Source of the DNA: a virus
Lineage: Duplodnaviria; Heunggongvirae; Uroviricota; Caudoviricetes
Length of the DNA stretch: 20,544 nucleotides
Direction: 5' to 3' (one strand)
Virus record (IMG/VR): IMGVR_UViG_2529293044_000023
How positions within the stretch are numbered: position 1 is the stretch's first letter; each line of letters opens with the position of its first letter. The notes beneath the pieces are model-generated. The model was not told the DNA's origin. It saw nothing but the letters and a program-made list of their open reading frames with translations, and searched no databases. Position numbers and translations under genes: made by a program. Positions 3,304 through 18,483 of the stretch are shown piece by piece.

Positions 3304-3797
3304 TGTTGCCCCCACAAACAGACTTCACGCTCAATCTCGCGGCGAGTCATCAGCCCTTTCCATTGCTTACCGCCAGCGTATGTCCAGCGCCGTAGCTGAT
3401 CACATGCGCCTTTGATATCGCCCTGGTTTATTTTGCGAAGAAGCGTCGATGTTCTGAAATTGCCAGCGCCCACGTTGTAAACGAACGAGTAAAGAGCGCC
3501 GCGCGTTGTTTCCGGTATATCGACGTTGATGTACGGGTTAATTTGTCTGGCGACCGTGGCAAGGTCTTTATTCAGGAGGGCTTTGCATTCTGCTTCGGTA
3601 TACGTTTTACCGAGCATAATGTCTTTTCCGGTGTGCCCGTAACATACAGTCCATACACCAACGATATCTTTATATGGTATGTAGCTGACGCCTTCCAGAC
3701 CATCGTTACCACTTGGGCCAGTGATTAACACAGATGCTATAGCAATAGCCCCGCCACCAATAGCCGCAGCAACGGCTTTTCGTAATGATGGAGGCAT
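3300..3797 (-). CDS. R: SAR endolysin (phage-21 R-type, T4-lysozyme-like muramidase)
   Basis: N-terminal signal-anchor-release segment ([20 protein letters not shown]) followed by the catalytic E-x8-D-x5-T signature ([23 protein letters not shown]). RBS GAGGTG; start overlaps the holin stop (TAATG). Confidence 0.9.
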
Positions 3798-4012
3798 TAT
3801 TCACCTCTCGCAGCCTTACGCTTGTCTTCTCTGATTTTGAAGTACAGATTTGTCAGGTAAGTCAGAAAGCCCAGAACCAGACTTCCCAGCACACCAATCG
3901 CAGCCCACTGTGACGGACTGACCTGATCAAGCCACTGTAAAAACCAGTAGCCAGCACTACCAGCGGATGTTCCGTAGGCAATGCCAGTAGAGATTTTGTC
4001 CATTGATTTCAT
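3797..4012 (-). CDS. S: Class II holin / pinholin (S21-type) with dual-start motif
   Basis: 71 aa, [71 protein letters not shown]. Two TMDs and an MKSM dual start (antiholin from Met1, holin from Met4), matching phage 21 S as I recall it. GGAGG RBS upstream. Confidence 0.9.
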
Positions 4013-4336
4013 AGCAACGCCTCCGCCAGTAACGGATTGCGTAGTTCTTATATTGGGAAGGGGAAAAAAGAAGGCCGCAGCGTAACTATCACTAATAAAT
4101 TCAGGACAGCCAGTGGCTACGGCTCAGTTTGGGTTGTGGCGGCCGGAATCGAACCGGCTTCCATCGGTGCGCTGCCGATTGCAGTACGCGCGGCGGTCAG
4201 CTATATGACTAGTATTTTCACTATCGCCTATCTGCTAGCTCGCCATTGAGCTTCACCACAACGATAAGAGCACTGCGCGGCACCTTTCACCAATTCCGCG
4301 AGGTCTGCGGGTTCAATGCTCTTACCTGTTGTGCAG

Positions 4337-4373
4337 AAAAAAAACCACACGGCAGCGAGTTTAAGCTGTGTGG
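4337..4373 (-). terminator. Rho-independent terminator on the minus strand (tR'-like late-leader terminator)
   Basis: Hairpin CCACAC-loop-GTGTGG (4345-4373) followed on the minus strand by a U8 run (complement of A8 at 4337-4344). Downstream minus-strand sequence TTTTTTTTCTGCACAACAGGTAAGAGCATTGA matches what I recall just after lambda tR'. Confidence 0.55.
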
Positions 4374-4476
4374 CGAAGTTACCTCTCTTCACCAAGTATT
4401 CGGTAATAAAATAACTTGTGGTGTTCTCGTTTTTATGCCGATAAAATAAACGGTCCACTTTCAAATGGAGCGATTC

Positions 4477-5397
4477 ATGATTTTTCTCAGAACTGAAAAC
4501 GGCATCGAGAAACTTGAAAACTGGGAGGAAATTATATCCAGACCAAACTTTGTCACCACTATAGACAAAGGAGTTCAACAACTTGAGGAGATAATTGGTT
4601 ACTACAAATTTAAAGAAGAAATCCACTGTGGTCTAACTGGTTGCAACCAACCACATCAAATGGGTTATATTGTAAAAACATCTAGTGGCATTGAAACCAA
4701 CATCGGAAATAAATGTGGTAAAAACGAATTTGGTGTGGAATTTGGTGAAAACGTTCTTAGTTTCAATAAATTTATGCAACTCGAAACCAATCGGGAAATT
4801 ATTAGCACCGCAAAAAGTAAATGTGAAGCGTGGCAAAAAAATATTGAAACGATACGAAATATCAAACCCACAATAGATTATCTATCTTCTACCATCGAAA
4901 ATAGTAAAAATTCCAATTACTCCGGAAGACTTGGTGCTACAGAAATTCGTTTTTTGACCAAGAACCAGACAGGCCTTGTAACCCTTTCTGAAGTGGAAAC
5001 TGATAAGAATACCAAAACAATTCTGTTCGCAATGAATGAACACATGCGCGAGTCTGGAGAGGCAATAAGTGAATTCTACATAGGAAAAGTATCATTTAGT
5101 CATGTTCTTTTACCAGAAAACAATCTTCGTGATTTTTTTGTTGCGCTCAAAGAAGATCTAAAAAAAATTCAGTGTATTGATCTACAAACAGCCCCAAGCC
5201 CAGAAATTTCTAATGTTGCCAAAATTGCCAGTTCAATCGAAGAACGAATCAAGCGATTAAAAAAACTGAAACATGAAGCCAGTAAATTCCTAACTAAAAA
5301 AAATCTGCGTCCCATCGCAAACAAAATAAAATACTCATCGACAGCGGATGAACTTGAATTCCATAATTTCGAACGCTTTTTAAAAGGGCTGAAATGA
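4477..5397 (+). CDS. Hypothetical protein, ~306 aa, AT-rich cargo gene of unknown function
   Basis: Long clean ORF on the strand opposite all flanking phage genes. Composition is visibly AT-rich against the phage backbone. GGAG 6 nt before the ATG at 4477 (the track's 4465 start has no RBS). Cys cluster HCGLTGC...KCGKN near the N-terminus and a charged coiled-coil-like C-terminus (IEERIKRLKKLKHEASK). No family recognised. Confidence 0.7.
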   Translation: MIFLRTENGIEKLENWEEIISRPNFVTTIDKGVQQLEEIIGYYKFKEEIHCGLTGCNQPHQMGYIVKTSSGIETNIGNKCGKNEFGVEFGENVLSFNKFMQLETNREIISTAKSKCEAWQKNIETIRNIKPTIDYLSSTIENSKNSNYSGRLGATEIRFLTKNQTGLVTLSEVETDKNTKTILFAMNEHMRESGEAISEFYIGKVSFSHVLLPENNLRDFFVALKEDLKKIQCIDLQTAPSPEISNVAKIASSIEERIKRLKKLKHEASKFLTKKNLRPIANKIKYSSTADELEFHNFERFLKGLK

Positions 5398-5400
5398 TAA

Positions 5401-5418
5401 AAGCCCCGAAAGGGGCTT
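5401..5418. terminator. GC-rich hairpin with GAAA tetraloop between the convergent cargo gene and Q; probable bidirectional terminator
   Basis: AAGCCCC-GAAA-GGGGCTT perfect 7-bp stem immediately after the cargo-gene stop. Flanked by T-rich tracts on both strands, though neither is a strong U-run. Confidence 0.45.
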
Positions 5419-5511
5419 CTATCAAAATCATTTACGCATTATTCCGCATGCTTAAAAGAATACATGACAGATTCGGACAAAATCAAGTGCAATGTCGCAA
5501 AAACCCTAAGC

Positions 5512-6342
5512 TTAGTTCACATCATCACCAAAACTTGTCACATTCTGAAAAGCAATATCGGCCTTACGCTCTTCCTGGTGGCAAATGTCAACCAGAGAAT
5601 CAAGAAACGGCTTCCAATTACGCGTCCATGTCCTGACATGTAGCTCGGGTATCCGCTTCAGTACAACTTTATATACTGTGGTAGACGGTACCGTGGAAAA
5701 TCCATTTCCGCTGCAACGTTCGCAGATTTTAAACACTGGCACACCACGCTCGCTTGTGGCTTTGCGGTCCAGTACCTCTCCCTTTCCACCACAACGACAC
5801 CTGGCACTTATCACTCCCTTCCCTTTACATACATCGCAAACGACTGGTACAACTTCCGTTACCTCTGTCCATTTCTCCCAGTCTGACGGTCGAACAGCAC
5901 GGGAGCGACTGGCCCAATATGGTGCTTTACCCCATGGGTATGAAACCTTACGAATGACCTGCTTACGGGGTGTTAGTCCGGTACCACTGCAACTATGGCA
6001 TGTTACGCTGGTGTCCGCCGATCGGGAATACTCAGCAAAAGCAAACTGCGCCAGTACCAGCATACACCAGCCAAATTCACCACCAGCTGCTTTACGCACA
6101 TTCTTCGGTGCAATTTCCATCGCGTGACGCGCCAGCGCTTGGACTGCCATCTGCTCATCAGTCTTGCTGATACCGGCCTTCCCGAAGAAGGCCGCCAAGC
6201 CAAACCGTTCACGATTGCTGGTGGTACCAATAGCCGCCATAACATCGGTGCCTGTAAGACGTTCCGGAGAGGTTCCTTTCACATCGTCGCCGATATACAT
6301 TCCCTGAGGACTGAAGTATTTTAGCGATGCCTCAAGCTTCAT
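5512..6342 (-). CDS. Q: Late-gene antitermination protein Q (lambda-Q family) with expanded Cys-rich region
   Basis: N-terminus (LTGTDVMAAIG...FGLAAFFGK), centre (VLAQFAFAEYSRSA...CHSCSGTG) and C-terminus (KPFLDSLVDICHQEERKADIAFQNV) parallel lambda Q as I recall it. 276 aa against 207 in lambda; carries four Cys-pair motifs (CHSCSGTG, CDVCKGKG, CRCGGKG, CERCSGNG) where lambda Q has two. Correct position upstream of the lysis cassette. Confidence 0.8.
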   Translation of the reverse strand: MKLEASLKYFSPQGMYIGDDVKGTSPERLTGTDVMAAIGTTSNRERFGLAAFFGKAGISKTDEQMAVQALARHAMEIAPKNVRKAAGGEFGWCMLVLAQFAFAEYSRSADTSVTCHSCSGTGLTPRKQVIRKVSYPWGKAPYWASRSRAVRPSDWEKWTEVTEVVPVVCDVCKGKGVISARCRCGGKGEVLDRKATSERGVPVFKICERCSGNGFSTVPSTTVYKVVLKRIPELHVRTWTRNWKPFLDSLVDICHQEERKADIAFQNVTSFGDDVN

Positions 6343-7199
6343 TATTCACACTCCCCAACCAGATTAAGAATAACCGCCGCGCCATTGTCTTTCATATATT
6401 CGCCCTTTCCGCTTGCCAAAAACCAACGACACACCTCCACTGCTTCAGCCCGTGTCACCGGTTTGATGGTCATCAGCAATTTTTCAAGGTAGCGCTCGCG
6501 GTCATATACCGATTCGTGATGCTCAGAGTAACCATACTCATCGCCCTGTTCTTTAGACGCAGTGTGGCGAACACTGTAGAGCCAGTCCCAGTAAACAAAC
6601 TCACGAACTACGTCTGACAATGTATGAGGCTCTGGCAGTACATCACGATAGCCATCAACATATGCACGACGCTGATCATCAATTTCATTCATACGGATGC
6701 CATCAATTCTGCCCGCTGTCTTCTCGGCTGCAGTCCAGCCCCAGAGATGATCGTCGATAAATTTCTGGGAAGACTTGATCACTCGCTCGGCTTCCACATC
6801 TTCGAGTGCTGCTTCATAGCTACCAAACGTAGCCCTGACTGATGTTGCTTTTTTGATATTCTCCCGGGCGATCCTGATTGCCTGTGCCGGGTTATCCATG
6901 CCGATGGTACCGAAAGCAATCTGGAAAGGATCACCACCATTCGCCAGCAGATAACGCGAATAGCGTTCCTGGGCCTCTTTTGGGGAAATTTTAATTTTCA
7001 CCAGCGCAGCCTCAGCAGCATCCAGATGTGCGGGTTCGTTCAGACGGATAACCTCCAGCACCCAAAGATAAGCATCAGTCTGCTTATGCCCGGTGATTCT
7101 CCGTTGCTCTGGCAGGGGCTTGATGTTTGCGAGGGCGGAGCTGTACGCTGCCGTCGGGATGGTGAATAGTGCTTTATGTTCGTTGTTATCAGTACGCAT
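6342..7199 (-). CDS. Hypothetical protein (285 aa) between the primase and Q, in the nin-region position
   Basis: Long ORF whose start overlaps the primase stop and whose stop overlaps the Q start, typical of a tightly packed operon. No domain recognised. Confidence 0.6.
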   Translation of the reverse strand: MRTDNNEHKALFTIPTAAYSSALANIKPLPEQRRITGHKQTDAYLWVLEVIRLNEPAHLDAAEAALVKIKISPKEAQERYSRYLLANGGDPFQIAFGTIGMDNPAQAIRIARENIKKATSVRATFGSYEAALEDVEAERVIKSSQKFIDDHLWGWTAAEKTAGRIDGIRMNEIDDQRRAYVDGYRDVLPEPHTLSDVVREFVYWDWLYSVRHTASKEQGDEYGYSEHHESVYDRERYLEKLLMTIKPVTRAEAVEVCRWFLASGKGEYMKDNGAAVILNLVGECE

Positions 7200-8167
7200 T
7201 ACGCAACCGCCTTTTTCTTATGGAAAACCAGCTCTCGAACCTGATCACCGTTCATGAGCATATTGTTGAAATCATCGTGATCCGGCCAGTACACGCTCAC
7301 GCGCTGCAGGTCATTCTTTGCCATCAGATTGGCATGAGCACATTCGCAAGCCGCAGCCAGCCCGGTGGCGCTGTTCTCGTCACGGTCGGCAAAAATAATC
7401 AGGTGCAGAACACCAGCTGGTACGCGGAACTTTTTCATAAAGCCGCTGTTAATGGTTGCCCAGGTGTTCACGTTATAAATCTGGTGCGCTGACAGCGCTG
7501 TTTCGATGCCTTCGGCGATACCCAGAGTGCTAGCAACAGGAAACATGCGGATAGCTACAGAACGAGCGTGATCCAAATAGTTATCTTCCTGCAGGGATTT
7601 GAGGCGCTTTGCACTGCTACCGATATCTGCTTTTTTATCACCATCAAGCAGAGTCTGGTGCAGATAGCACAACTCCCCTTTATCGTCCGTAGCAAGTGAA
7701 TAAAGAGACTGGAACACACTCCCGTTGTGTCTCTGCCTGGCATTGAACCGGATCGCCTCAGCAGGAAGACTGAATATTCCACGAGAATTAAGATACGCTG
7801 CGCCGGATGTACCACGCAGTGCCTCCAGTTTTGAAAACTTGCTCAATACCCGTTTGCGTAAGCTGGTGGCGCTGCTGGTTACCGGGATTTTAACCCGTTG
7901 GTAATCATTACCGCTCAGGCGGTCTATTTCGGTACAAATCTCGTTAAATGGCTTCGCCTGTGTCAGGGTGACAAGTTTCATACCATCGCCACTACCACAT
8001 ACACAGATCCACGTTCCTGCACCGTCGCGGTCATCAATTCGGAACTTGCCACGTGCACCGCATACCGGGCATTCACCCTTGAAGTGATTTTTTCCTGTTA
8101 TCGGCGGCAAGCCGAAGTGCTCTAATATTTCAGGCCAGCGGCCTTTCGCTGCAGCTGCTGTTTTCAT
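7199..8167 (-). CDS. DNA primase (zinc-binding N-terminus plus TOPRIM domain)
   Basis: Cys-rich motif GECPVCGARGKFRIDDRDGAGTWICVCG, then TOPRIM-like acidic motifs IAEGIETALS and IIFADRDENSAG. Adjacent to and co-oriented with the helicase. Confidence 0.75.
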   Translation of the reverse strand: MKTAAAAKGRWPEILEHFGLPPITGKNHFKGECPVCGARGKFRIDDRDGAGTWICVCGSGDGMKLVTLTQAKPFNEICTEIDRLSGNDYQRVKIPVTSSATSLRKRVLSKFSKLEALRGTSGAAYLNSRGIFSLPAEAIRFNARQRHNGSVFQSLYSLATDDKGELCYLHQTLLDGDKKADIGSSAKRLKSLQEDNYLDHARSVAIRMFPVASTLGIAEGIETALSAHQIYNVNTWATINSGFMKKFRVPAGVLHLIIFADRDENSATGLAAACECAHANLMAKNDLQRVSVYWPDHDDFNNMLMNGDQVRELVFHKKKAVA

Positions 8168-8168
8168 C

Positions 8169-9827
8169 TTACTGACTCAAACTGTTTATATTTTTCTGGA
8201 GTTGTTGCTTTGCTTGCATGATGCGCCAAGCCTCAGTGCCTATTGGCATCTCGCTTCGCTCACCTCGTTCCTGAGACAGAGGAATCGTTGCCTGCAATTT
8301 TTCTATAGTTCTCTGCGTCCGCTGACGGCCTTTGGCAAACCGAATCAGCTTGTGTTTGATGTAGTTACTTACTTCTGGGCTTATTTCCATCGGGAAACTG
8401 CTCAACCCATCAGGCCATTCACCGAATTTCTCCCTGAAAGTGTGAGCACACCATCCATCACTGACTGGACGCCCCAGCGAAGCACGCTGGCGCTGATAAA
8501 ATTTGATCTGACTCCACCAGGACTGTTTCTCTGCCTTCGTCGACTGATGCTGATTTTTACCCAGCTTATTAAGTTTGCGGCTAGTGTCAGTATCAACGTC
8601 TTCACCTCGCAGCGGCTTGTGTCCACATTTCGGGCAAACATAGACGCCAGCTGGCTTCATGTAGTGGCATTGAGGGCATTCATGTGGCAGTTTTTCGGCC
8701 CGTTCCTCAACTGCGCGGCGCGCGCTTTCCTCCATGCCATCAGACTTACCGGGAAGATCGTCGTACTCGATTGAATCCGGATAACCCAAACGGTGCACGG
8801 TGCCGCTGTGATCGAAGATAAGGCAGGACGCTTTACCCGGTGCGGTGCGCAGCCCACGCCCGAGTGCCTGCAACCAGCGAATTTCGCTTTTTGTTGGCCT
8901 GGCGTAGATGATGCAACGAACGTCACTATCGAATCCGGCTACCAGAACGCCCACACTAACGATGATTTTCGTTGCACCGGTTTCAAAGCGGTGAATGATG
9001 GTCTGGCGCTCATCTACCGGAGTGTCGGCGGTCATTACCTCAGCGTTAACACCCGCCAAGTTAAACTGGATTGTCAGATAATTGGCGTGAGCTACGTTGA
9101 CGCAGAAAGCGATGGTAGGTAGATCCCGACCATTCTCCAGCCAGTTCTGTACGATGTCGCCCACCAGCGTAGAGCCGCACATGATTTCAGCCAGCTGTGT
9201 TTCGTTGTAATCGCGGCCGTACTCAAGCGAAGATGTGGTTTTAACACCTTTCAGATCCGGCTTAGTTGGCGCGTAAAATTCGTATTTACTCAGATCGCCA
9301 CGCTGGATTAACTCGCCGATGGTGGTCGGCTTAATCAGTCGGTCATAGTATTTGCCCAGGAACGGAGAAAACGGAGTACCCGACAGGCCAATCACCTTTA
9401 CGCCTTTGCCGCGCAGACGTTCGATATCCTTCAGGATGCGTTTTTTACGCAGGTGCGCTTCGTCGATAATCAGCAGATCGATATTTTCAGGAAAAACACG
9501 ACGAATAAGCGTGTCAGCGCTGGCAATCTGAATTTTCCGGTCCGGATCGTAGTTCGGGTGATCCGCCCAGATATAACCGATTTCATCTCCAGGTAAACCA
9601 TACTGCACGAACCGATTAGCCGTCTGACCAATCAGGATGGTGTACGGAACACAGAACAGAACACGCATACCACGGCTGACAAAACCAGCAACTATGAAGG
9701 CTGCCAGACCCGTTTTACCGCTACCTGTTGGCGAGTAAACCATGAAGGTGTCGTTTGCCTTCCAGTCACGGCGCAACATGTTTAGCGCTCGCTCCTGTGC
9801 AAAATTCGGCGTGATTGTCAGCTGCAT
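8169..9827 (-). CDS. Superfamily-2 DEAH-box DNA helicase (phage replication helicase) with C-terminal zinc ribbon
   Basis: Walker A SPTGSGKTG, DEAH box LLIIDEAH, motif III GLSGTP, arginine finger region ALGRGLR. CPQCHYMK...CPKCGHKP forms a zinc-ribbon motif. Confidence 0.85.
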   Translation of the reverse strand: MQLTITPNFAQERALNMLRRDWKANDTFMVYSPTGSGKTGLAAFIVAGFVSRGMRVLFCVPYTILIGQTANRFVQYGLPGDEIGYIWADHPNYDPDRKIQIASADTLIRRVFPENIDLLIIDEAHLRKKRILKDIERLRGKGVKVIGLSGTPFSPFLGKYYDRLIKPTTIGELIQRGDLSKYEFYAPTKPDLKGVKTTSSLEYGRDYNETQLAEIMCGSTLVGDIVQNWLENGRDLPTIAFCVNVAHANYLTIQFNLAGVNAEVMTADTPVDERQTIIHRFETGATKIIVSVGVLVAGFDSDVRCIIYARPTKSEIRWLQALGRGLRTAPGKASCLIFDHSGTVHRLGYPDSIEYDDLPGKSDGMEESARRAVEERAEKLPHECPQCHYMKPAGVYVCPKCGHKPLRGEDVDTDTSRKLNKLGKNQHQSTKAEKQSWWSQIKFYQRQRASLGRPVSDGWCAHTFREKFGEWPDGLSSFPMEISPEVSNYIKHKLIRFAKGRQRTQRTIEKLQATIPLSQERGERSEMPIGTEAWRIMQAKQQLQKNINSLSQ

Positions 9828-9938
9828 TGTGCTGTCCCCGCAGTGATGAGATAATAATTTTGTGATGTGGTTTTCATGGATTCCTCCTCACATGGCTGGT
9901 GGTCTCCCCAAAGGCTGCCAGCCCCTTTCCGAATCAAC

Positions 9939-10307
9939 TCACTTAAATTTCGTCGCACGAATAACGTCAATTCCGTTCTCGCTATATCGAAGAGGGTGCT
10001 TACCATCCCTGAGCAGGACAAAGCCTGACATCCCCTCAGGTAGCTGAGCCAGCTTCATCAACGAACGGTTGCGGGGAGACTTCTTATCGACCTCAATGGC
10101 ACACTGCTGGCCGTCTGATGATGTAACCAGGCAATCAATAAACCCTTTACGACCACCGCTAATGCTGATGCTGAAATTGCGTTGCAGATGGTATCCCTGA
10201 GACTTGATTTTTTTCTGCATCACATAATCGAAAACGACTTTGTCATCGGAGCGAATGAATTGCTCTTCCAGGAGAGTGATTAAATTTTGCTTCAGGTCTT
10301 CACTCAT
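9939..10307 (-). CDS. Hypothetical protein (122 aa), possible PD-(D/E)xK-like nuclease motif
   Basis: ATG-initiated ORF upstream of the helicase. Motif GFIDCLV...AIEVDKK is loosely compatible with a D...(D/E)xK nuclease signature. Weak RBS. Confidence 0.45.
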   Translation of the reverse strand: MSEDLKQNLITLLEEQFIRSDDKVVFDYVMQKKIKSQGYHLQRNFSISISGGRKGFIDCLVTSSDGQQCAIEVDKKSPRNRSLMKLAQLPEGMSGFVLLRDGKHPLRYSENGIDVIRATKFK

Positions 10308-10556
10308 ACTTTTTTATCCATCTTGTACTAGCTTTCTGGTACAGCCGTTTTTTCAGGGGTATCCCCCTTTAGATCGAGATCTACCTAACCTATGTACCCG
10401 TCTGTTGGAAAAGCCTGTTCCAGTGCTTCGCACTAACACACGGGCACTCCTCCCCCTCCCCTCCTCTCATTGAATTTTGTGCGTACTCTTTAACTAGTAC
10501 AAAAATGCAATGAGATTTGGGATTCAGCCACCGGACACCTTTAAGCCCGGTACCAA

Positions 10557-12818
<2,262 letters not shown>

Positions 12819-12821
12819 TCA

Positions 12822-13094
12822 TCATTCGTTTTTCATAACTGCCGCATTTGTGGCTGTGTGACTTCTACGTAACAAATCAGGGATTGCATCTTCAGGATGG
12901 GGATAAAGATCTGGTCTTAACCCATGAGGAGTAACTTTCCATTCCACAACTTCACATACACGCAAGACGAAACGAGCAGGAATTGTTCTTTTTGAAAACC
13001 ATTGGTTCACAGCTTGCGGCGTAACGCCTAGATTTCGCGCTATGGCATTTTGTGCAATTAGCTCACGAAGTGCGTCGTAATCATTTCCTTTCAT
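12822..13094 (-). CDS. Cro-like HTH transcriptional regulator (YdaS/Cro family)
   Basis: 90 aa with an HTH (NAIARNLGVTPQAVNQWFSKRTIP). Transcribed divergently from the cI-like repressor, 134 bp away, which is the Cro position. Confidence 0.7.
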   Translation of the reverse strand: MKGNDYDALRELIAQNAIARNLGVTPQAVNQWFSKRTIPARFVLRVCEVVEWKVTPHGLRPDLYPHPEDAIPDLLRRSHTATNAAVMKNE

Positions 13095-13228
13095 CGCAAC
13101 CCACCAATCTAAACTTTATAAATTCAAGATTACATCAAGTTTAAATTAACATGCAAGTCCACAAAAGATCGAATACACTAAAATCAAGTAAAAATTTATC
13201 GAAACCAAGTAACCAGCAAGGATTAACA
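13095..13228. promoter_or_regulatory. Divergent promoter/operator region between cro-like and cI-like genes (OR-like)
   Basis: AT-rich 134-bp intergenic region with repeated ATCAAGT-type motifs (13134-13140, 13183-13189, variant 13204-13210). Minus-strand TTATAA/TATAAA -10 candidate ~20 bp upstream of the cro start. Exact promoters not resolved. Confidence 0.45.
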
Positions 13229-13918
13229 ATGAAAAACTTAAAGAGCACTGAAAATCGAATTACAAAGCTGCTACAGGAGAAAGGCTGGAGCCAAGCAGAG
13301 CTGGCCCGAAAATTAGGTGTCAGCGCACAGTCCGTACAGTACTGGACAACAGGAAAAACATTTCCAAGGGGAAACCGGCTTGCCCAGTTATCCGAAATAA
13401 GTGGTTATCCGCAATCGTGGTTTTTAGGAGAAATCACGTCACGGCAGTTCTCTTCAAAGGAAAAACATCAAGCAAGAACTGACAGTGTGGTCTTTAACGT
13501 GCTCGATGTTGAGTTTAGTTGCGGCGATGGAACACATGTCCGTGGGGACTTTATCGATGTAGTTCGCTCAATCGAGCTTGATCCTGAATATGCCCGTCGC
13601 CTTGTTGGCAATAGAGCATTTCAAAACATAGAGATTGGTAACGCAAGAGGAGATAGTATGGCTCCAACAATAGCCCCAGGAGATCTTCTTTTTCTCGATA
13701 AAACAGTGAATTACTTTGATGGTGATGGCATTTATGCTTTTTGCTTTGATGGTGAATGCTACGTCAAAAGATTACAAAAGATAGGAAGTAAAATCATGGT
13801 GTTATCTGATAACCCAAATTACCAATCCTGGAGCATTGAAAAAGATGCTCTTGAGCTGCTTTATATCCAATCGAAGGTAATCTCATCTGTTCCATTCAAT
13901 ATAAATAGATTTGGTTAA
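13229..13918 (+). CDS. cI-like prophage repressor (N-terminal HTH_XRE, C-terminal LexA/S24 autopeptidase domain)
   Basis: HTH (WSQAELARKLGVSAQSVQYWTTGKTFP). S24 catalytic Ser in GDSMAPTI and Lys in ECYVKRL. AAGGA RBS 6 nt before the ATG at 13229; the track's 13151 start adds a low-complexity extension without an RBS and is rejected. Confidence 0.85.
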   Translation: MKNLKSTENRITKLLQEKGWSQAELARKLGVSAQSVQYWTTGKTFPRGNRLAQLSEISGYPQSWFLGEITSRQFSSKEKHQARTDSVVFNVLDVEFSCGDGTHVRGDFIDVVRSIELDPEYARRLVGNRAFQNIEIGNARGDSMAPTIAPGDLLFLDKTVNYFDGDGIYAFCFDGECYVKRLQKIGSKIMVLSDNPNYQSWSIEKDALELLYIQSKVISSVPFNINRFG

Positions 13919-13939
13919 TTATTGATTATTAAAGAAAAA

Positions 13940-14060
13940 TTTACAAATCAAGTAAAAGAGACGCAGAAATCAATTTTTTCTTGACAACTCCATCAATCAA
14001 GATCTAACATCACACCATCAATTTTGACTTGATTTATTGTTAATTTTAAATTGATGGTGA
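13940..14060 (+). promoter_or_regulatory. pL/OL-like early promoter-operator region driving the rightward early operon
   Basis: Two sigma70-like candidates: TTGACA (13981-13986) with TAACAT at 18-bp spacing, and TTGACT (14025-14030) with TAAATT (14047-14052) at 16-bp spacing. Operator-like motifs AAATCAAGTAAAA (13945-13957), ATCAAGA (13996-14002) and ACTTGAT (14027-14033) overlap them. Confidence 0.45.
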
Positions 14061-14064
14061 TTCA

Positions 14065-14493
14065 ATGAAAGATCTGACAACCGCTGAGATATCGAACTTA
14101 AACCACTTCGAAAAAGAATCCTTTGCATTAAATATTGCAAATCTGGTAGGTGCTGCTCGTACTTTCCATTTAATTGATGGTGATCGCTCTAAAGAATTGG
14201 GGTTTGAAGTCATGGAGTTTGTTCATGAATACGCCCTGTCTGCTACTTATCCATTACATAATCACATAATCAACAAACAACCAAATAAAATCCGCACCCA
14301 ACGCGAAGCCTGCGGCTTAACAACCGCCGAACTCGCCAGGCTGCTCGATCTCGATGAAGAAATTATCATCCAGTGGGAAAGCGGAGAGTACGAACCAACC
14401 ATCAGCATGCTTATCCCTCTGGCTAATGTTCTTGGCTGTGATCCAATGTTGTTATTGACTGATGCTTATAAACAAAATCAGGAGGAAGCATAA
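14065..14493 (+). CDS. HTH_XRE-domain protein (C-terminal Cro/C1-type HTH), first gene of the early operon
   Basis: 142 aa. C-terminal half IRTQREACGLTTAELARLLDLDEEIIIQWESGEYEPTISMLIPLANVLGCDP is a typical XRE HTH. N-terminal ~70 aa unrecognised. GGTGA RBS. Confidence 0.65.
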   Translation: MKDLTTAEISNLNHFEKESFALNIANLVGAARTFHLIDGDRSKELGFEVMEFVHEYALSATYPLHNHIINKQPNKIRTQREACGLTTAELARLLDLDEEIIIQWESGEYEPTISMLIPLANVLGCDPMLLLTDAYKQNQEEA

Positions 14494-14494
14494 G

Positions 14495-14686
14495 ATGAAA
14501 ATGTTCAAAGGCCTTACCAACGAACCGGAGACAGCTTTTCATCACATTGCCGTACTGCTTGAAGCGGGGTTAATCATTTCGGCTTCCGGTGATGAAGAAT
14601 GTGATGAACTTTCGGATGATATCTTTTTACTGGCACAACAATACGCCAAAAGCGCATGCGATGCATTTAAGGAGCAAAGAACATGA
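14495..14686 (+). CDS. Hypothetical small acidic protein (63 aa)
   Basis: ATG preceded by AGGAGG. The track start 14462 is an upstream alternative without an RBS. Confidence 0.5.
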   Translation: MKMFKGLTNEPETAFHHIAVLLEAGLIISASGDEECDELSDDIFLLAQQYAKSACDAFKEQRT

Positions 14687-14874
14687 TAACTCCATTAAAT
14701 ATTCTTGAGGAAGTGGCGGCACAAATAAAAGAGAATACATCAATGCTTGAATTTATATTTAAGAATTCGCCCGACCAAGGAGAGACAGACGATTATTTAT
14801 GCTGTCTCATTCGCTCCATGAATAAGACCTGTGAAATGGCTTACGAGTATATAGAAACACTACGCAACGAATAA
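14683..14874 (+). CDS. Hypothetical protein (63 aa)
   Basis: AAGGAG RBS; start overlaps the previous stop as ATGA, suggesting translational coupling. Confidence 0.5.
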   Translation: MITPLNILEEVAAQIKENTSMLEFIFKNSPDQGETDDYLCCLIRSMNKTCEMAYEYIETLRNE

Positions 14875-14956
14875 AGAACACTCAGTAAAAAATCACACAT
14901 AAAAACATGACGGCCTCTGGTCGTGGATTTCCACAACCAGAAAATAATGGTGATGC

Positions 14957-15055
14957 ATGAAAAATAGAAACGCTTATAAAACCGCATTATTAATGGCTAA
15001 TGCAGGATACTGGTCAGTTGCAATACTGTTTCTCAGAAAAGCATACGGGAAATAA
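14957..15055 (+). CDS. Possible small hydrophobic peptide (32 aa)
   Basis: MKNRNAYKTALLMANAGYWSVAILFLRKAYGK has one predicted TM-like segment. Weak RBS. Below the ORF-track size cutoff. Confidence 0.25.
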   Translation: MKNRNAYKTALLMANAGYWSVAILFLRKAYGK

Positions 15056-15058
15056 CAA

Positions 15059-15418
15059 ATGGCATGTACAACCATTTATAAAGATCGTCGCCGCATGGTA
15101 ACAGCGGCACTCCGGCGGATGCAACGTAAAACAGGTAGTAATCTGCTCGTCGTTGACCTCCCGGACGGAGAAATAACAACGATAGAAATAACTGAACAGT
15201 TCATGAACCAGTTGTTATTACGATTTGAGGGTCTTACCCGTGTTGAATATGGACGGACGGAAGGAGAAGCAACAATCCGTACCGCATACCAGAATGCCAT
15301 CGGTATTAATCAACACACGGAATATCTCACTGAATCAGGGAAACTGATAGTGGACGGCCTTTTAAAAGAGGTTGTTGACTACGTAAAAGAGAAATATATC
15401 AGTGGAGGAATTAACTGA
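15059..15418 (+). CDS. Hypothetical protein (119 aa)
   Basis: ATG-initiated ORF in the early operon; its stop overlaps the next start. Confidence 0.55.
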   Translation: MACTTIYKDRRRMVTAALRRMQRKTGSNLLVVDLPDGEITTIEITEQFMNQLLLRFEGLTRVEYGRTEGEATIRTAYQNAIGINQHTEYLTESGKLIVDGLLKEVVDYVKEKYISGGIN

Positions 15419-15627
15419 TGTCTGATTTATCCCCTCTTATACACGAAAAAGTACAGATCATTATGACGATTGAAAATGGTCAGGTAATAAATACCCGTAA
15501 AGTTCACAATAACGAGATGATTGCCAGCATGGATACCTTCTTGTGGATAGCAAAGAAAGCGGGATATCAGGTAATCGCTCCTGATCTGGAGGAAATCGGT
15601 GACATTAACAGCAATACGAATTCCTGA
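15418..15627 (+). CDS. Hypothetical protein (69 aa)
   Basis: GGAGG RBS; start overlaps the upstream stop (TGATG). Confidence 0.55.
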   Translation: MSDLSPLIHEKVQIIMTIENGQVINTRKVHNNEMIASMDTFLWIAKKAGYQVIAPDLEEIGDINSNTNS

Positions 15628-15850
15628 GTGGGTGCACCTGCAGGCGGTCCGTGTTCTCCGCCAGTTCAGAGCCAGACGAATTCATCCCTGTCGTATGCAC
15701 GGCTCCGGAAACCTGAGTCTGAGGGTTAATCGCCGCTGGCGGCTGCTGTCCCGAGACGGCGGCCAGAACTGGGAAGTAATGAGCCATGAACGATACAGCA
15801 AAGTTAAGGACCGGAAATGAACAATAAACCTTCAAACCAAAAGGAGAGTA

Positions 15851-16432
15851 TTGATGATTAATTCAACCATTACCCCTGAACCTACATTAACAGGCATCCG
15901 TTTTGGTAATCGAATTATTGGTTATTCAACTGCGGTTCGCCAGATCGACAACGGTAACTATGACAAACGAATTCCGGACGGGCTCGATCTGATAGCTTGC
16001 ATTATGGAAGGGATTGAAAGCGGCTGGTTTATGCCGTGTATTGAAAAACAAATCATCCTATGGCGCTGGCTTGTTGTCGCCGTGTTCATTGCTGAGGAGC
16101 AGGAGAAGAACGGGACTGTCGATGTTCAGAATGACAAGGGCGGCGTAGATACAGCCGTTGTATACACAGGAAAACCCGGTTCAATCAGCATTTATCCATG
16201 GTCTGAGCGCTTCGCGCTCGCTAACCATATCGAGGCGGGCGCAATTGAAAAATACGGGCCTGACGTTGGCCAGCAGATGGCGCTGCGTATGTATCAGGAC
16301 ATGGTTGTAACTGACGAGAAATGCGGATTCAGGCTGTCAGCGATGGGCCGGGAGGGACTCAACATACTACATGACAGCTTCATTGAACTGATTCAGAAAG
16401 ACGGTATGCCAGACATGCCGGTTATGCACTGA
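15851..16432 (+). CDS. Hypothetical protein (193 aa)
   Basis: AAGGAGAG RBS 7 nt upstream of the ATG. No domain recognised. Confidence 0.6.
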   Translation: MMINSTITPEPTLTGIRFGNRIIGYSTAVRQIDNGNYDKRIPDGLDLIACIMEGIESGWFMPCIEKQIILWRWLVVAVFIAEEQEKNGTVDVQNDKGGVDTAVVYTGKPGSISIYPWSERFALANHIEAGAIEKYGPDVGQQMALRMYQDMVVTDEKCGFRLSAMGREGLNILHDSFIELIQKDGMPDMPVMH

Positions 16433-16443
16433 GGTGGACGAAA

Positions 16444-17190
16444 ATGAACATAGTAACGATCAATAACAAACAGCTTCCGGCAGTCGAATATCGCGGTCAG
16501 CGTGTTGTGACGCTGGCGATGATTGATGAAGTCCACCAGCGACCGGAAGGAACAGCGCGTGCAGCATTCAACCGAAACCGTGAGCATTTCATCAGCGGTG
16601 TGGATTATGCCGAATTAGGTGCGGACGTAATACGTACGGACCTCCCGGAAGGAACATTCTCTAAATTTGCACCATCAGGGATTGTACTTTTTGAATCAGG
16701 TTACCTGATGTTGACGAAGCCATTCAATGACGCCCTTGCCTGGCAGGTTCAGCGCGAACTGGTTAACAGCTACTTCCGCACTCGCACACCGCTAACGGAA
16801 ATCGAGATGATCGCTGCGATAGCCGCCGACGCTGTTCGTCAACAGAAGCGCCTGAATCATGTGGAAGAACAGCTCGAAACAGTCACAGAAGCGGTGGAAA
16901 CCATCAAACGCGGAAATATGCGCGCCGGATATGTCGGTTATCGCCAGGTGGTCGCCAAAAGCGGAATGACTGATGCTAAGTGCCGCAATCTGGTCAATGC
17001 CTACAGCATCCCAACCGATACGCACGAATTTATGACACCAGATGGTCTTCTTTCGCGCCGGGCTATCGTGGAGCTGGAGCCATTCATGAAAGCATTTCAT
17101 CAGATGATGTCAGAGGCAGAGCCACGTGGTACCCGCTGGTATCACCCGAAGATGGGGCTGTTTCAGGTGATTGGTTGGGAGGGTAAATAA
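16444..17190 (+). CDS. Putative phage regulatory / antirepressor-like protein (KilA-N/ORF6N-like N-terminal domain)
   Basis: N-terminus LPAVEYRGQRVVTLAMIDEVHQRPEGTARAAFNRNREHFISGVDYAEL resembles ORF6N/KilA-N domains, judged from memory only. 248 aa. Confidence 0.5.
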   Translation: MNIVTINNKQLPAVEYRGQRVVTLAMIDEVHQRPEGTARAAFNRNREHFISGVDYAELGADVIRTDLPEGTFSKFAPSGIVLFESGYLMLTKPFNDALAWQVQRELVNSYFRTRTPLTEIEMIAAIAADAVRQQKRLNHVEEQLETVTEAVETIKRGNMRAGYVGYRQVVAKSGMTDAKCRNLVNAYSIPTDTHEFMTPDGLLSRRAIVELEPFMKAFHQMMSEAEPRGTRWYHPKMGLFQVIGWEGK

Positions 17191-17528
17191 TGTCACTCAT
17201 TACACAAAATTTCCGCCTCAATGCGCTGGCAAATCAGTATGCGGCGGCACTGCACAACCACATATCCGCCACCAGCGGTGGTCATTTCCTGATTAATGTC
17301 AATGGGCAATCCATACGAGTAAACATCATCGGTGGGGTTAAAGGCATCAGGGACTTAATCGATGGTTATGCTCTGAAGGCTATCAAAGAAAATTACCCCC
17401 AATGGGAAGCCGTTGGTATTCAACTGTTAAGCAAATGCGTTCGTGGAAACGAGCTGACGCAAAGCGGCAAAGAAATCTGGCAGAGCATGGTCAACGACAT
17501 GAGCGATACCGTTATGGGGAACATGTAA
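17190..17528 (+). CDS. Hypothetical protein (112 aa)
   Basis: Start overlaps the upstream stop (TAATG); ORF in operon context. Confidence 0.55.
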   Translation: MSLITQNFRLNALANQYAAALHNHISATSGGHFLINVNGQSIRVNIIGGVKGIRDLIDGYALKAIKENYPQWEAVGIQLLSKCVRGNELTQSGKEIWQSMVNDMSDTVMGNM

Positions 17529-17750
17529 ATGAAAATCCAATACCAGGACTATGGCGCCGTAGCGAACATCGTGATCACCAGTTCCTGCCTGACATTGCAA
17601 AAGCATAACCGCGTTGTTGATGCGGTGCTGTTTAATGTACAGGGGATCTCTGAAAACCGCAGCGGCTTTTTCTGGGTTAAGTCATCGTTGTCAGGAAAAA
17701 CACGCGACATCCTGCGCGCCTACAAAATCGTACAGCGGGAGGCAAAGTGA
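17529..17750 (+). CDS. Hypothetical protein (73 aa)
   Basis: Starts one nt after the upstream stop; ORF in operon context. Confidence 0.5.
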   Translation: MKIQYQDYGAVANIVITSSCLTLQKHNRVVDAVLFNVQGISENRSGFFWVKSSLSGKTRDILRAYKIVQREAK

Positions 17751-17845
17751 TGAAGTCATTCCTCCTGTCCATACTGTTTAGTCTGCTGCTGGCGTCCGTC
17801 GTTTTCGGTACGCTGATTGAATATAAATTTTTAATGAATTACTGA
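17750..17845 (+). CDS. Possible small membrane peptide (31 aa)
   Basis: MKSFLLSILFSLLLASVVFGTLIEYKFLMNY is a single hydrophobic helix. ATG overlaps the upstream stop (GTGATGA). Below the ORF-track cutoff. Confidence 0.3.
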   Translation: MKSFLLSILFSLLLASVVFGTLIEYKFLMNY

Positions 17846-17853
17846 GGTGCGGG

Positions 17854-18009
17854 GTGGGCAAGATCAAAAACCCAGTTGTACTTATCCATAAGCGAGAAAA
17901 TAGTGACTCCTACGCCGTTACAATCACCTGCGGTAGCCAGAACTATCACGACGCCGTTCTGATGGCGTCGATGGAACTGGATATGAGTGACGATGATGTC
18001 GATACCTAG
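17854..18009 (+). CDS. Possible small protein (51 aa, GTG start)
   Basis: GAGG 6 nt upstream of GTG. Product VGKIKNPVVLIHKRENSDSYAVTITCGSQNYHDAVLMASMELDMSDDDVDT has protein-like composition. Fills an otherwise empty 180-bp gap. Confidence 0.3.
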   Translation: MGKIKNPVVLIHKRENSDSYAVTITCGSQNYHDAVLMASMELDMSDDDVDT

Positions 18010-18027
18010 AGTAAAACAGGCTATTAC

Positions 18028-18483
18028 ATGGCTGAAGAAATCGAGCGACTGAAACAAGCACTTTCCGCTGCGGAAAATAATCTGATTGATTCCGAATGCC
18101 TCGTAGCTGAATTAAGCAAAGCAAAGGATCACGCATATGGGCTGGTCGACACATACGACTGGCAACGTCAGCGTCTCCACGCAGCCGCTGAGAAAGTCCT
18201 CAAATGGTGCAGACAAGAAGCTGAACACCGTACCGGCGATCCAGAGAAAGCAGAAAACTATGCGTGCGTTAAAGAACTACGCGACGCATTAACTTTTTGC
18301 AAAAGTTCTGAAAGCAGCAAGAAGAAAGGCCTGACTATCACCCTGCCCGATATCACATCAAAGGCATTCTGGAGCGGTACCGGAAAAAACGCAAAATTCC
18401 ATCCGGCAACCTATAAACGCTGGGTGAAAGAAGCTATTAAACGGGATTGTGTTATTGCCGGGATCGGCGTGGAGGTGAAATGA
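18028..18483 (+). CDS. Hypothetical early protein (151 aa)
   Basis: ATG-initiated ORF with a coiled-coil-like N-terminus. No family recognised. Confidence 0.55.
   Translation: MAEEIERLKQALSAAENNLIDSECLVAELSKAKDHAYGLVDTYDWQRQRLHAAAEKVLKWCRQEAEHRTGDPEKAENYACVKELRDALTFCKSSESSKKKGLTITLPDITSKAFWSGTGKNAKFHPATYKRWVKEAIKRDCVIAGIGVEVK

Follow-up and report, generated by a model that had tools for sequence, protein, structure and literature searches.

We describe here the Q antiterminator gene on a 20,544-nucleotide stretch of DNA (hereafter, the window) from a Caudoviricetes virus, IMG/VR record IMGVR_UViG_2529293044_000023. The gene encodes a 276-amino-acid (aa) lambda-family Q protein with four Cys-pair motifs of the CxxCxGxG type. 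By alignment and structural modeling, two of the motifs are the counterpart of the lambda Q zinc ribbon, and the other two, which lie in an insertion with no counterpart in lambda Q, probably bind a second structural zinc at the base of a predicted beta-hairpin. This four-motif arrangement is the ordinary form of the family. The gene and the parts of its product are as follows.

5512..6342, minus strand: Q antiterminator gene, 276 aa, with ATG at 6342 and TAA at 5514-5512
6163..6342, minus strand: N-terminal segment, residues 1-60, aligned without gaps to lambda Q 1-60
5977..6000, minus strand: Cys motif 1, CHSCSGTG, residues 115-122 (C115, C118), no counterpart in lambda Q
5839..5976, minus strand: inserted beta-hairpin predicted from the secondary structure of the AlphaFold2 (AF2) model, residues 123-168, with strands 123-134 and 157-168 and an aromatic-rich tip, VSYPWGKAPYW...RPSDWE
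5815..5838, minus strand: Cys motif 2, CDVCKGKG, residues 169-176 (C169, C172), no counterpart in lambda Q
5779..5799, minus strand: Cys motif 3, CRCGGKG, residues 182-188 (C182, C184; CxC, not CxxC), aligned with lambda Q C118/C121
5701..5724, minus strand: Cys motif 4, CERCSGNG, residues 207-214 (C207, C210), aligned with lambda Q C144/C147
5515..5700, minus strand: C-terminal helical body with a helix-turn-helix region, residues 215-276, aligned with lambda Q 152-205 (AF2 helices 220-230 and 236-269)

The Q gene begins with an ATG that overlaps the stop codon of the open reading frame (ORF) upstream (ATGA). Judged by profile matches and predicted fold, its product is a lambda-family Q antiterminator. 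It scores 175.3 bits against the PF03589 (Antitermination protein Q) profile hidden Markov model (cutoff, 26.7; E = 2.6e-52), and its residues 1-270 correspond to positions 1-252 of the 253 in phrog_127, "anti-termination protein Q-like." In a phmmer search of PDB sequences, lambda Q (7ubm_Q, E = 2.3e-35) matches in two stretches, its residues 1-126 pairing with residues 1-123 of the present Q and its residues 115-205 with residues 179-268. The resemblance to lambda Q at both ends, which the initial annotation had proposed, is thus borne out, and so is the excess of about 70 aa given there, the lengths being 276 and 207 aa, a difference of 69. The AF2 model has a predicted local distance difference test (pLDDT) score of 85, and its top Foldseek matches are all lambda Q chains, the best of them (7ubn_Q; E = 3.7e-12; target template modeling score, 0.82) being lambda Q in the engaged loading complex. 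The region of lambda Q that matches residues 1-60 refolds into a nozzle on the RNA-exit channel (PMC9388147), and from the gapless alignment residues 1-60 of the present Q would be expected to form one too. Overall identity to lambda Q (PF03589; PDB 4MO1 and 7UBJ-7UBN) is about 30-40%. The two proteins are homologous from residue 1 to the C terminus and share the predicted fold, the zinc ribbon of four cysteines, and the N-terminal segment, whereas the present Q has an arm insertion of ~67 residues with two CxxCxGxG motifs and the beta-hairpin.

The four Cys-pair motifs that were initially reported are all present. Across 59 aligned homologues with 41-87% identity, none of the eight cysteines and none of the motif glycines varies, the invariant positions being C115, C118, G120, and G122 in motif 1 and C169, C172, and G174 in motif 2. 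As the motifs are invariant in these homologues and recur in the 28 divergent cluster representatives described below, the pattern is not a product of chance.

In lambda Q, the arm formed by residues 114-152 is a zinc ribbon that touches positions 11-13 of the Q-binding element, with elements named H3, B1, and B2, and residues 110-112, 117, and 122-126 touch the zinc-binding domain of the RNA polymerase (RNAP) beta' subunit (PMC9388147). The sole cysteines of that arm in the PDB sequence are C118, C121, C144, and C147. When 36 long and short forms of Q were aligned with MAFFT, every short form had its first Cys pair on motif 3, and C182, C184, G186, C207, C210, G212, and G214 were invariant across both forms; many short forms also share the (A)(R/K)CxC context of motif 3. 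Motifs 3 and 4 are 25 residues apart in the present Q, 26 in lambda Q, and 25-26 in most family members, and the segment between them is predicted by AF2 to be strand-helix-strand, consistent with H3, B1, and B2 of lambda. Because alignment columns, spacing, and predicted secondary structure pattern all agree, motifs 3 and 4 (C182, C184, C207, and C210) are assigned as the counterpart of the lambda Q zinc ribbon.

The excess over lambda Q in the middle of the protein is about 55-67 residues. The insertion comprises residues ~112-178 and falls between lambda Q residues ~113 and ~116, inside the zinc-ribbon arm, and it is here that the extra length carries additional Cys-pair motifs, as initially noted: two further, strictly conserved CxxCxGxG motifs. 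In the AF2 model, the insertion runs from motif 1 through strand 123-134, a short helical tip, and strand 157-168 to motif 2. Its pLDDT is 80-89 in the full-length model, with 85-89 over the hairpin segment 123-168, an arm-only model gives the same secondary structure, and these two strands are the two long strands of the arm in both models. We read them as an antiparallel hairpin, a pairing that would set the end of motif 1 beside the start of motif 2.

Spacings across the family fit such an arrangement. From motif 1 to motif 2 the C-to-C distance spans 14 to 63 residues, whereas from motif 2 to motif 3 it is 13 in most four-motif representatives and 11 or 15 in a few; a fixed clasp with a hairpin of any length growing out of it would be expected to give just such a variable first spacing followed by near-fixed 2-3 and 3-4 spacings. 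Two family members, P0127 (269 aa, four motifs) and P0133 (200 aa, two motifs), have flanks that are ~90% identical and differ by a clean 67-aa module holding exactly motifs 1 and 2. Loss of this module would be harmless if zinc were bound by motifs in tandem (1+2 and 3+4) and would break both sites if they were interleaved (1+4 and 2+3). In addition, the insert is flanked by two conserved sequences, RSA ahead of it and R-C-x-C-GxG behind, which are the counterparts of the lambda Q residues that contact beta', so the ends of the insert must meet if that surface is to be preserved. Taken with the model, these observations suggest that motifs 1 and 2 (C115, C118, C169, and C172) probably bind a second, separate structural zinc at the base of the hairpin, and that zinc pairing would be tandem and not interleaved as in DnaJ. 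Since the insertion is flanked by counterparts of the lambda contacts with the beta' zinc-binding domain, an effect on RNAP contacts is conceivable from its position in the sequence.

The initial annotation had implied a departure from the norm of the family and had set against this the case in which the length variant is the common form; a survey of homologues finds that it is. Among 50,697 phage records searched with tblastn, 250 had a Q homologue, and the long form, defined as a single alignment covering at least 80% of the query, was present in 133 of these, including phi80, Stx2c-converting phages, SPN3UB, and mEp237; lambda/P22-type Q genes match the long-form query in two pieces. A HMMER search of 1.84 billion representatives of 50%-identity clusters, with a query that is itself a long form, returned 232 matches, the best 150 of which were classified. 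Among these 150, 44 representatives hold both the N-terminal and the C-terminal Q regions, and they carry four Cys-pair motifs in 28 cases, two in 13, three in 2, and one in 1; one of the two three-motif representatives and the single one-motif representative contain CxxxxC variants missed by the search pattern. Four motifs are also found in phi80 Q and in YdfT (QuuQ; b1559; 250 aa) of the Qin cryptic prophage of Escherichia coli K-12. YdfT is a lambda-family Q that is 38% identical over its full length; its hairpin is shorter and unrelated, its motif 3 is CxxC, and its prophage is cryptic.

The exact 276-aa protein is already public under the name "prophage antitermination protein"; its cluster has 104 members from 80 contigs, and the Prokaryotic Genome Annotation Pipeline (PGAP) labels it "antitermination protein" in E. 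coli genomes. As an allele it is rare in that species, with at least 80% of its length found in 19 of 5,426 complete genomes. The Q of the Shiga toxin 2f (Stx2f) phage phi467 (CUW01236) is 98.9% identical, and a 276-aa PF03589 Q was noted in 2023 in some Stx2f prophages (PMC10673567); the protein in Escherichia albertii Stx2f prophages from that report is matched to the present one by length and family alone. A full-text literature search combining "antitermination protein Q" with CXXCXGXG returned nothing relevant. As the four-motif arrangement is the usual one, the finding is an ordinary one: the four-motif Q is already known, makes up the majority of family diversity in these sequence surveys, and is found in about half of the phage genomes that encode a Q of this family.

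Immediately downstream of the Q gene lies a block, at 5392-5486, with the following candidate elements.

5457..5486, minus strand: candidate late promoter (pR'-like), with -35 TTGATT at 5486-5481, an 18-nucleotide (nt) spacer, and -10 TATTCT at 5462-5457
5480-5472, minus strand: candidate Q-binding element TTGTCCGAA, opening the 18-nt spacer, from comparative alignment
5438..5443, minus strand: -10-like AATAAT in the initially transcribed region, a candidate sigma-dependent pause element by analogy with lambda pR' (PMC9388147)
5392..5418, minus strand: intrinsic-terminator-like hairpin AAGCCCC-TTTC-GGGGCTT followed by TTATCATTT, a candidate tR'

The promoter and TTGTCCGAA block is kept in Cronobacter phage ENT39118 and in the Klebsiella relatives KPP5665-2 and ST11-OXA48phi15.1, the Q proteins of which are 62-67% identical to the present one, while the flanking sequence diverges. 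A hairpin with a T-run stands at the same place in all three, and the -10-like element is kept as (G)ATATAA/AATAAT in all four phages. The layout matches that annotated in phi80, in which pR', with the Q site between -35 and -10, and then a terminator follow directly after the Q gene. Downstream of the block are a holin gene (identified by position and similarity to phi467), a lysozyme gene, and Rz. The lambda Q gene likewise stands ahead of the late promoter, the terminator, and the lysis genes.

Several observations weigh against this assignment. A consensus promoter and terminator scan called neither pR' nor tR', and the promoter has 8 of 12 consensus matches with its 18-nt spacer. In a previous study of E. 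albertii Stx2f prophages, two of which have a 276-aa Q, no PR'/qut was found ahead of stx2f (PMC10673567). The terminator scan missed tR' because its T-run is interrupted. Direct alignment of the region downstream of Q with that of phi80 revealed no convincing sequence similarity, so that the layout alone is common to the two, and the annotated phi80 Q-binding element, TCGCGGA, differs from TTGTCCGAA. Given the silent scan and the lack of similarity to phi80, we regard 5392-5486 as a candidate late promoter, Q site, pause element, and terminator.

The hairpin, as judged from sequence comparisons, is a mosaic cassette that varies and is swapped independently of the Q backbone. The Q of phi80 (gp17; YP_007947979; 269 aa; L002:1501-2310) has its four motifs at identical positions (115, 169, 182, and 207, counted from 1) and is 34-36% identical in the backbone, yet its 46-residue hairpin is 61% identical to the present one, and both contain the tip KVSYPWGK.PYW...SRAVRPSDWE. 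The DNA-binding regions of phi80 Q were reportedly studied experimentally by Guo and Roberts in 2004. Conversely, family members P0120 and P0121 are 76-88% identical to the present Q in the backbone and only 15-17% identical in the hairpin, which is 11 residues shorter and of the "VIKHPG..DG.E" type; for P0120 alone, the values are 79-87% for the backbone and 17% for the insert. Cassettes of the same type occur in the Q proteins of ENT39118, KPP5665-2, and ST11-OXA48phi15.1.

Between the ~90% identical P0127 and P0133, the whole module of motif 1, hairpin, and motif 2 has been cleanly gained or lost. This clean gain or loss, together with the exchange of cassettes independently of the backbone, indicates, from sequence comparison, recombination within the Q family at the repeated CxxCxGxG-coding sequences. 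The hairpin cassette was also considered as a determinant of DNA specificity for a -35-proximal element. We have provisionally rejected this role: Q proteins with different cassettes share the TTGTCCGAA block, so the hairpin does not covary with the candidate Q-binding element.

The extra motifs had initially been likened to a DnaJ-type Cys-rich domain arising from a duplicated zinc-binding module. The resemblance of the repeated motif stands, with three canonical CxxCxGxG repeats and one CxCxGxG in the present Q. Assignment to the DnaJ family does not: PF00684 (DnaJ cysteine-rich) aligns with residues 169-215 at 25.8 bits (cutoff, 32.7; E = 1.3e-5) and TIGR02349 (DnaJ_bact) with residues 167-215 at 22.6 bits (cutoff, 377), both below threshold, and a Foldseek comparison of the full Q model with DnaJA2 gave an E value of 1.4. 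The repeats are spaced by 54, 13, and 25 residues here and by 17, 22, and 14 in E. coli DnaJ. In the DnaJ domain, the interleaved zinc sites are carried by a V-shaped hairpin. The DnaJ cysteine-rich domain, BSD2, and anti-TRAP also differ from Q in context, which for Q is a DNA- and RNAP-binding arm and not a chaperone. On these profile and model comparisons, the likeness extends no further than a common zinc-knuckle motif, and membership in the DnaJ cysteine-rich family is not supported. The proposal of a duplicated module fared no better, since by BLASTP residues 107-179 and 175-221 are alike over the 8-residue motif alone; internal module duplication was rejected as unsupported.

A genuine DnaJ-type domain with interleaved zincs (1+4 and 2+3), in which the whole arm is remodeled relative to lambda Q, would account for the four CxxCxGxG-type repeats and for the partial PF00684 and TIGR02349 alignments, and the short spacing between motifs 2 and 3, mostly 13, suits a single zinc site. 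We nevertheless consider it unlikely. Short forms keep exactly motifs 3 and 4, which bind the one zinc of lambda Q, and the clean loss of motifs 1 and 2 between ~90% identical relatives would leave two half-sites. The segment from motif 1 to motif 2 is modeled as two long strands, which we read as paired with each other, whereas in DnaJ the pairing is with the segment between repeats 3 and 4, and the DnaJA2 match has an E value of only 1.4.

The cysteines of motifs 1 and 2 might instead bind no metal at all, acting as disulfide or redox sites or persisting as evolutionary relics, with the insert as a passive loop; lambda Q, after all, works without these residues (PMC9388147). This reading appears very improbable, as the four extra cysteines and their glycines are invariant in the 59 homologues, the extra cysteines are kept in the 28 divergent clusters (the CxxxxC variant included), and CxxCxGxG is a recognized zinc knuckle. 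The cytoplasmic location of the protein likewise argues against structural disulfides. Least credible of all is the reading closest to the initial one, namely that the protein is an unusual version of lambda Q, elaborated in one lineage, whose zinc module was recently duplicated with a resulting change in RNAP or DNA contacts. The insert does sit at the contact of the arm with the RNAP beta' zinc-binding domain, and the exact allele is rare in E. coli. Against it, the four-motif form accounts for the majority of family diversity and about half of the phage genomes, and is present in phi80 Q and K-12 YdfT; the sequence bears no sign of duplication beyond the motif; and differing hairpin cassettes accompany the same candidate Q-binding element, so that the hairpin does not track the DNA site.

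The reading that we prefer, and consider likely from sequence and model, is that the window encodes a functional lambda-family Q of the common long form with a lambda-like mode of action, in which motifs 3 and 4 form the ribbon and motifs 1 and 2 hold a second zinc. Q would bind its element within the late promoter that directly follows the Q gene and would be loaded onto sigma-paused RNAP, where its conserved N-terminal segment would form a nozzle on the RNA-exit channel. The polymerase would then read through the terminator ~45-65 nt downstream and into the lysis and structural genes. By homology with lambda Q, we infer that Q has antitermination activity at the 5392-5486 promoter. The second zinc, held by motifs 1 and 2, would pin together the base of the protruding beta-hairpin, so keeping lambda-like arm geometry and RNAP contacts on either side.

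The remainder of the window is consistent with a relative of an Stx2f phage. It is 99.5% identical to phi467 over 4338-10787 and 12741-18966, and the modules are arranged in the order helicase, primase, 285-aa ORF, Q, convergent 310-aa ORF, holin, lysozyme, and Rz. Other features of the window are listed below.

4465..5397, plus strand: 310-aa ORF, AT-rich (35.6% GC, against 51% for Q), convergent with Q
6342..7199, minus strand: 285-aa ORF, translationally coupled to Q (ATGA overlap)
10873..11895: istA, with an rve integrase core and a helix-turn-helix (HTH)
11892..12674: istB, IstB_IS21

The candidate tR' hairpin also sits at the end of the 310-aa ORF. With the candidate tR' on one side of this ORF and the lysis genes on the other, late transcription modified by Q would cross it antisense. 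It has no match in Pfam, NCBIfam, or PADLOC and is possibly a moron or defense gene; phi467 annotates the same DNA as two shorter coding sequences (CDSs). The 285-aa ORF falls in no Pfam or NCBIfam family, and a PADLOC scan gave no usable match. Its position is occupied in ENT39118 by a hypothetical CDS of similar size and in KPP5665-2 and ST11-OXA48phi15.1 by a shorter "HTH domain protein." An IS21-family element at 10788-12740, inserted relative to phi467, has a CTGAA(T) target duplication at its ends and splits a hypothetical early-region CDS of that phage.

In phi467, Q is followed by the stx2f A and B genes and by genes for tRNA-Thr and tRNA-Gly (L001 14005-16503); the window lacks all of these and has ~280 unrelated bp at 4060-4337 in their place. 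Because of this replacement, the window represents an stx-negative relative of the Stx2f phage. ARAGORN found no tRNA anywhere in the window, and an Rfam scan of 3700-5600 returned sub-threshold matches only. One of these is a transfer-messenger RNA match at 4131-4189 on the minus strand (20.2 bits; cutoff, 47; E = 1.1e-5), and a T-arm-like sequence, ggttcgattccgg, occurs at 4150-4165. Stx2f prophages are reported to integrate in ssrA (PMC10673567), and an attachment site of the ssrA type may have left its remnant at 4131-4189.

The impact on annotation is small, since Q is readily recognizable and the exact sequence is already deposited and named. The 5392-5486 block provides a concrete candidate for PR'/qut and so bears on how expression of Shiga toxin 2f is coupled to prophage induction. 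For the family, the only structurally characterized member, lambda Q, is a minority short form, and in the majority form the arm bears, at its RNAP-contacting edge, an additional hairpin that is probably clasped by zinc. More tentatively, and with less confidence than we would need to favor it, most lambda-family Q proteins, the present one included, may carry a two-zinc arm in which the second zinc clasps an exchangeable finger of ~6 to ~55 residues, inserted exactly at the beta' contact. The finger could then be a modular determinant of specificity or affinity, for instance by touching RNAP, sigma, NusA, or upstream DNA at a further point. On this reading, lambda Q, the sole member with a solved structure, would be a reduced form found in the minority of the family.

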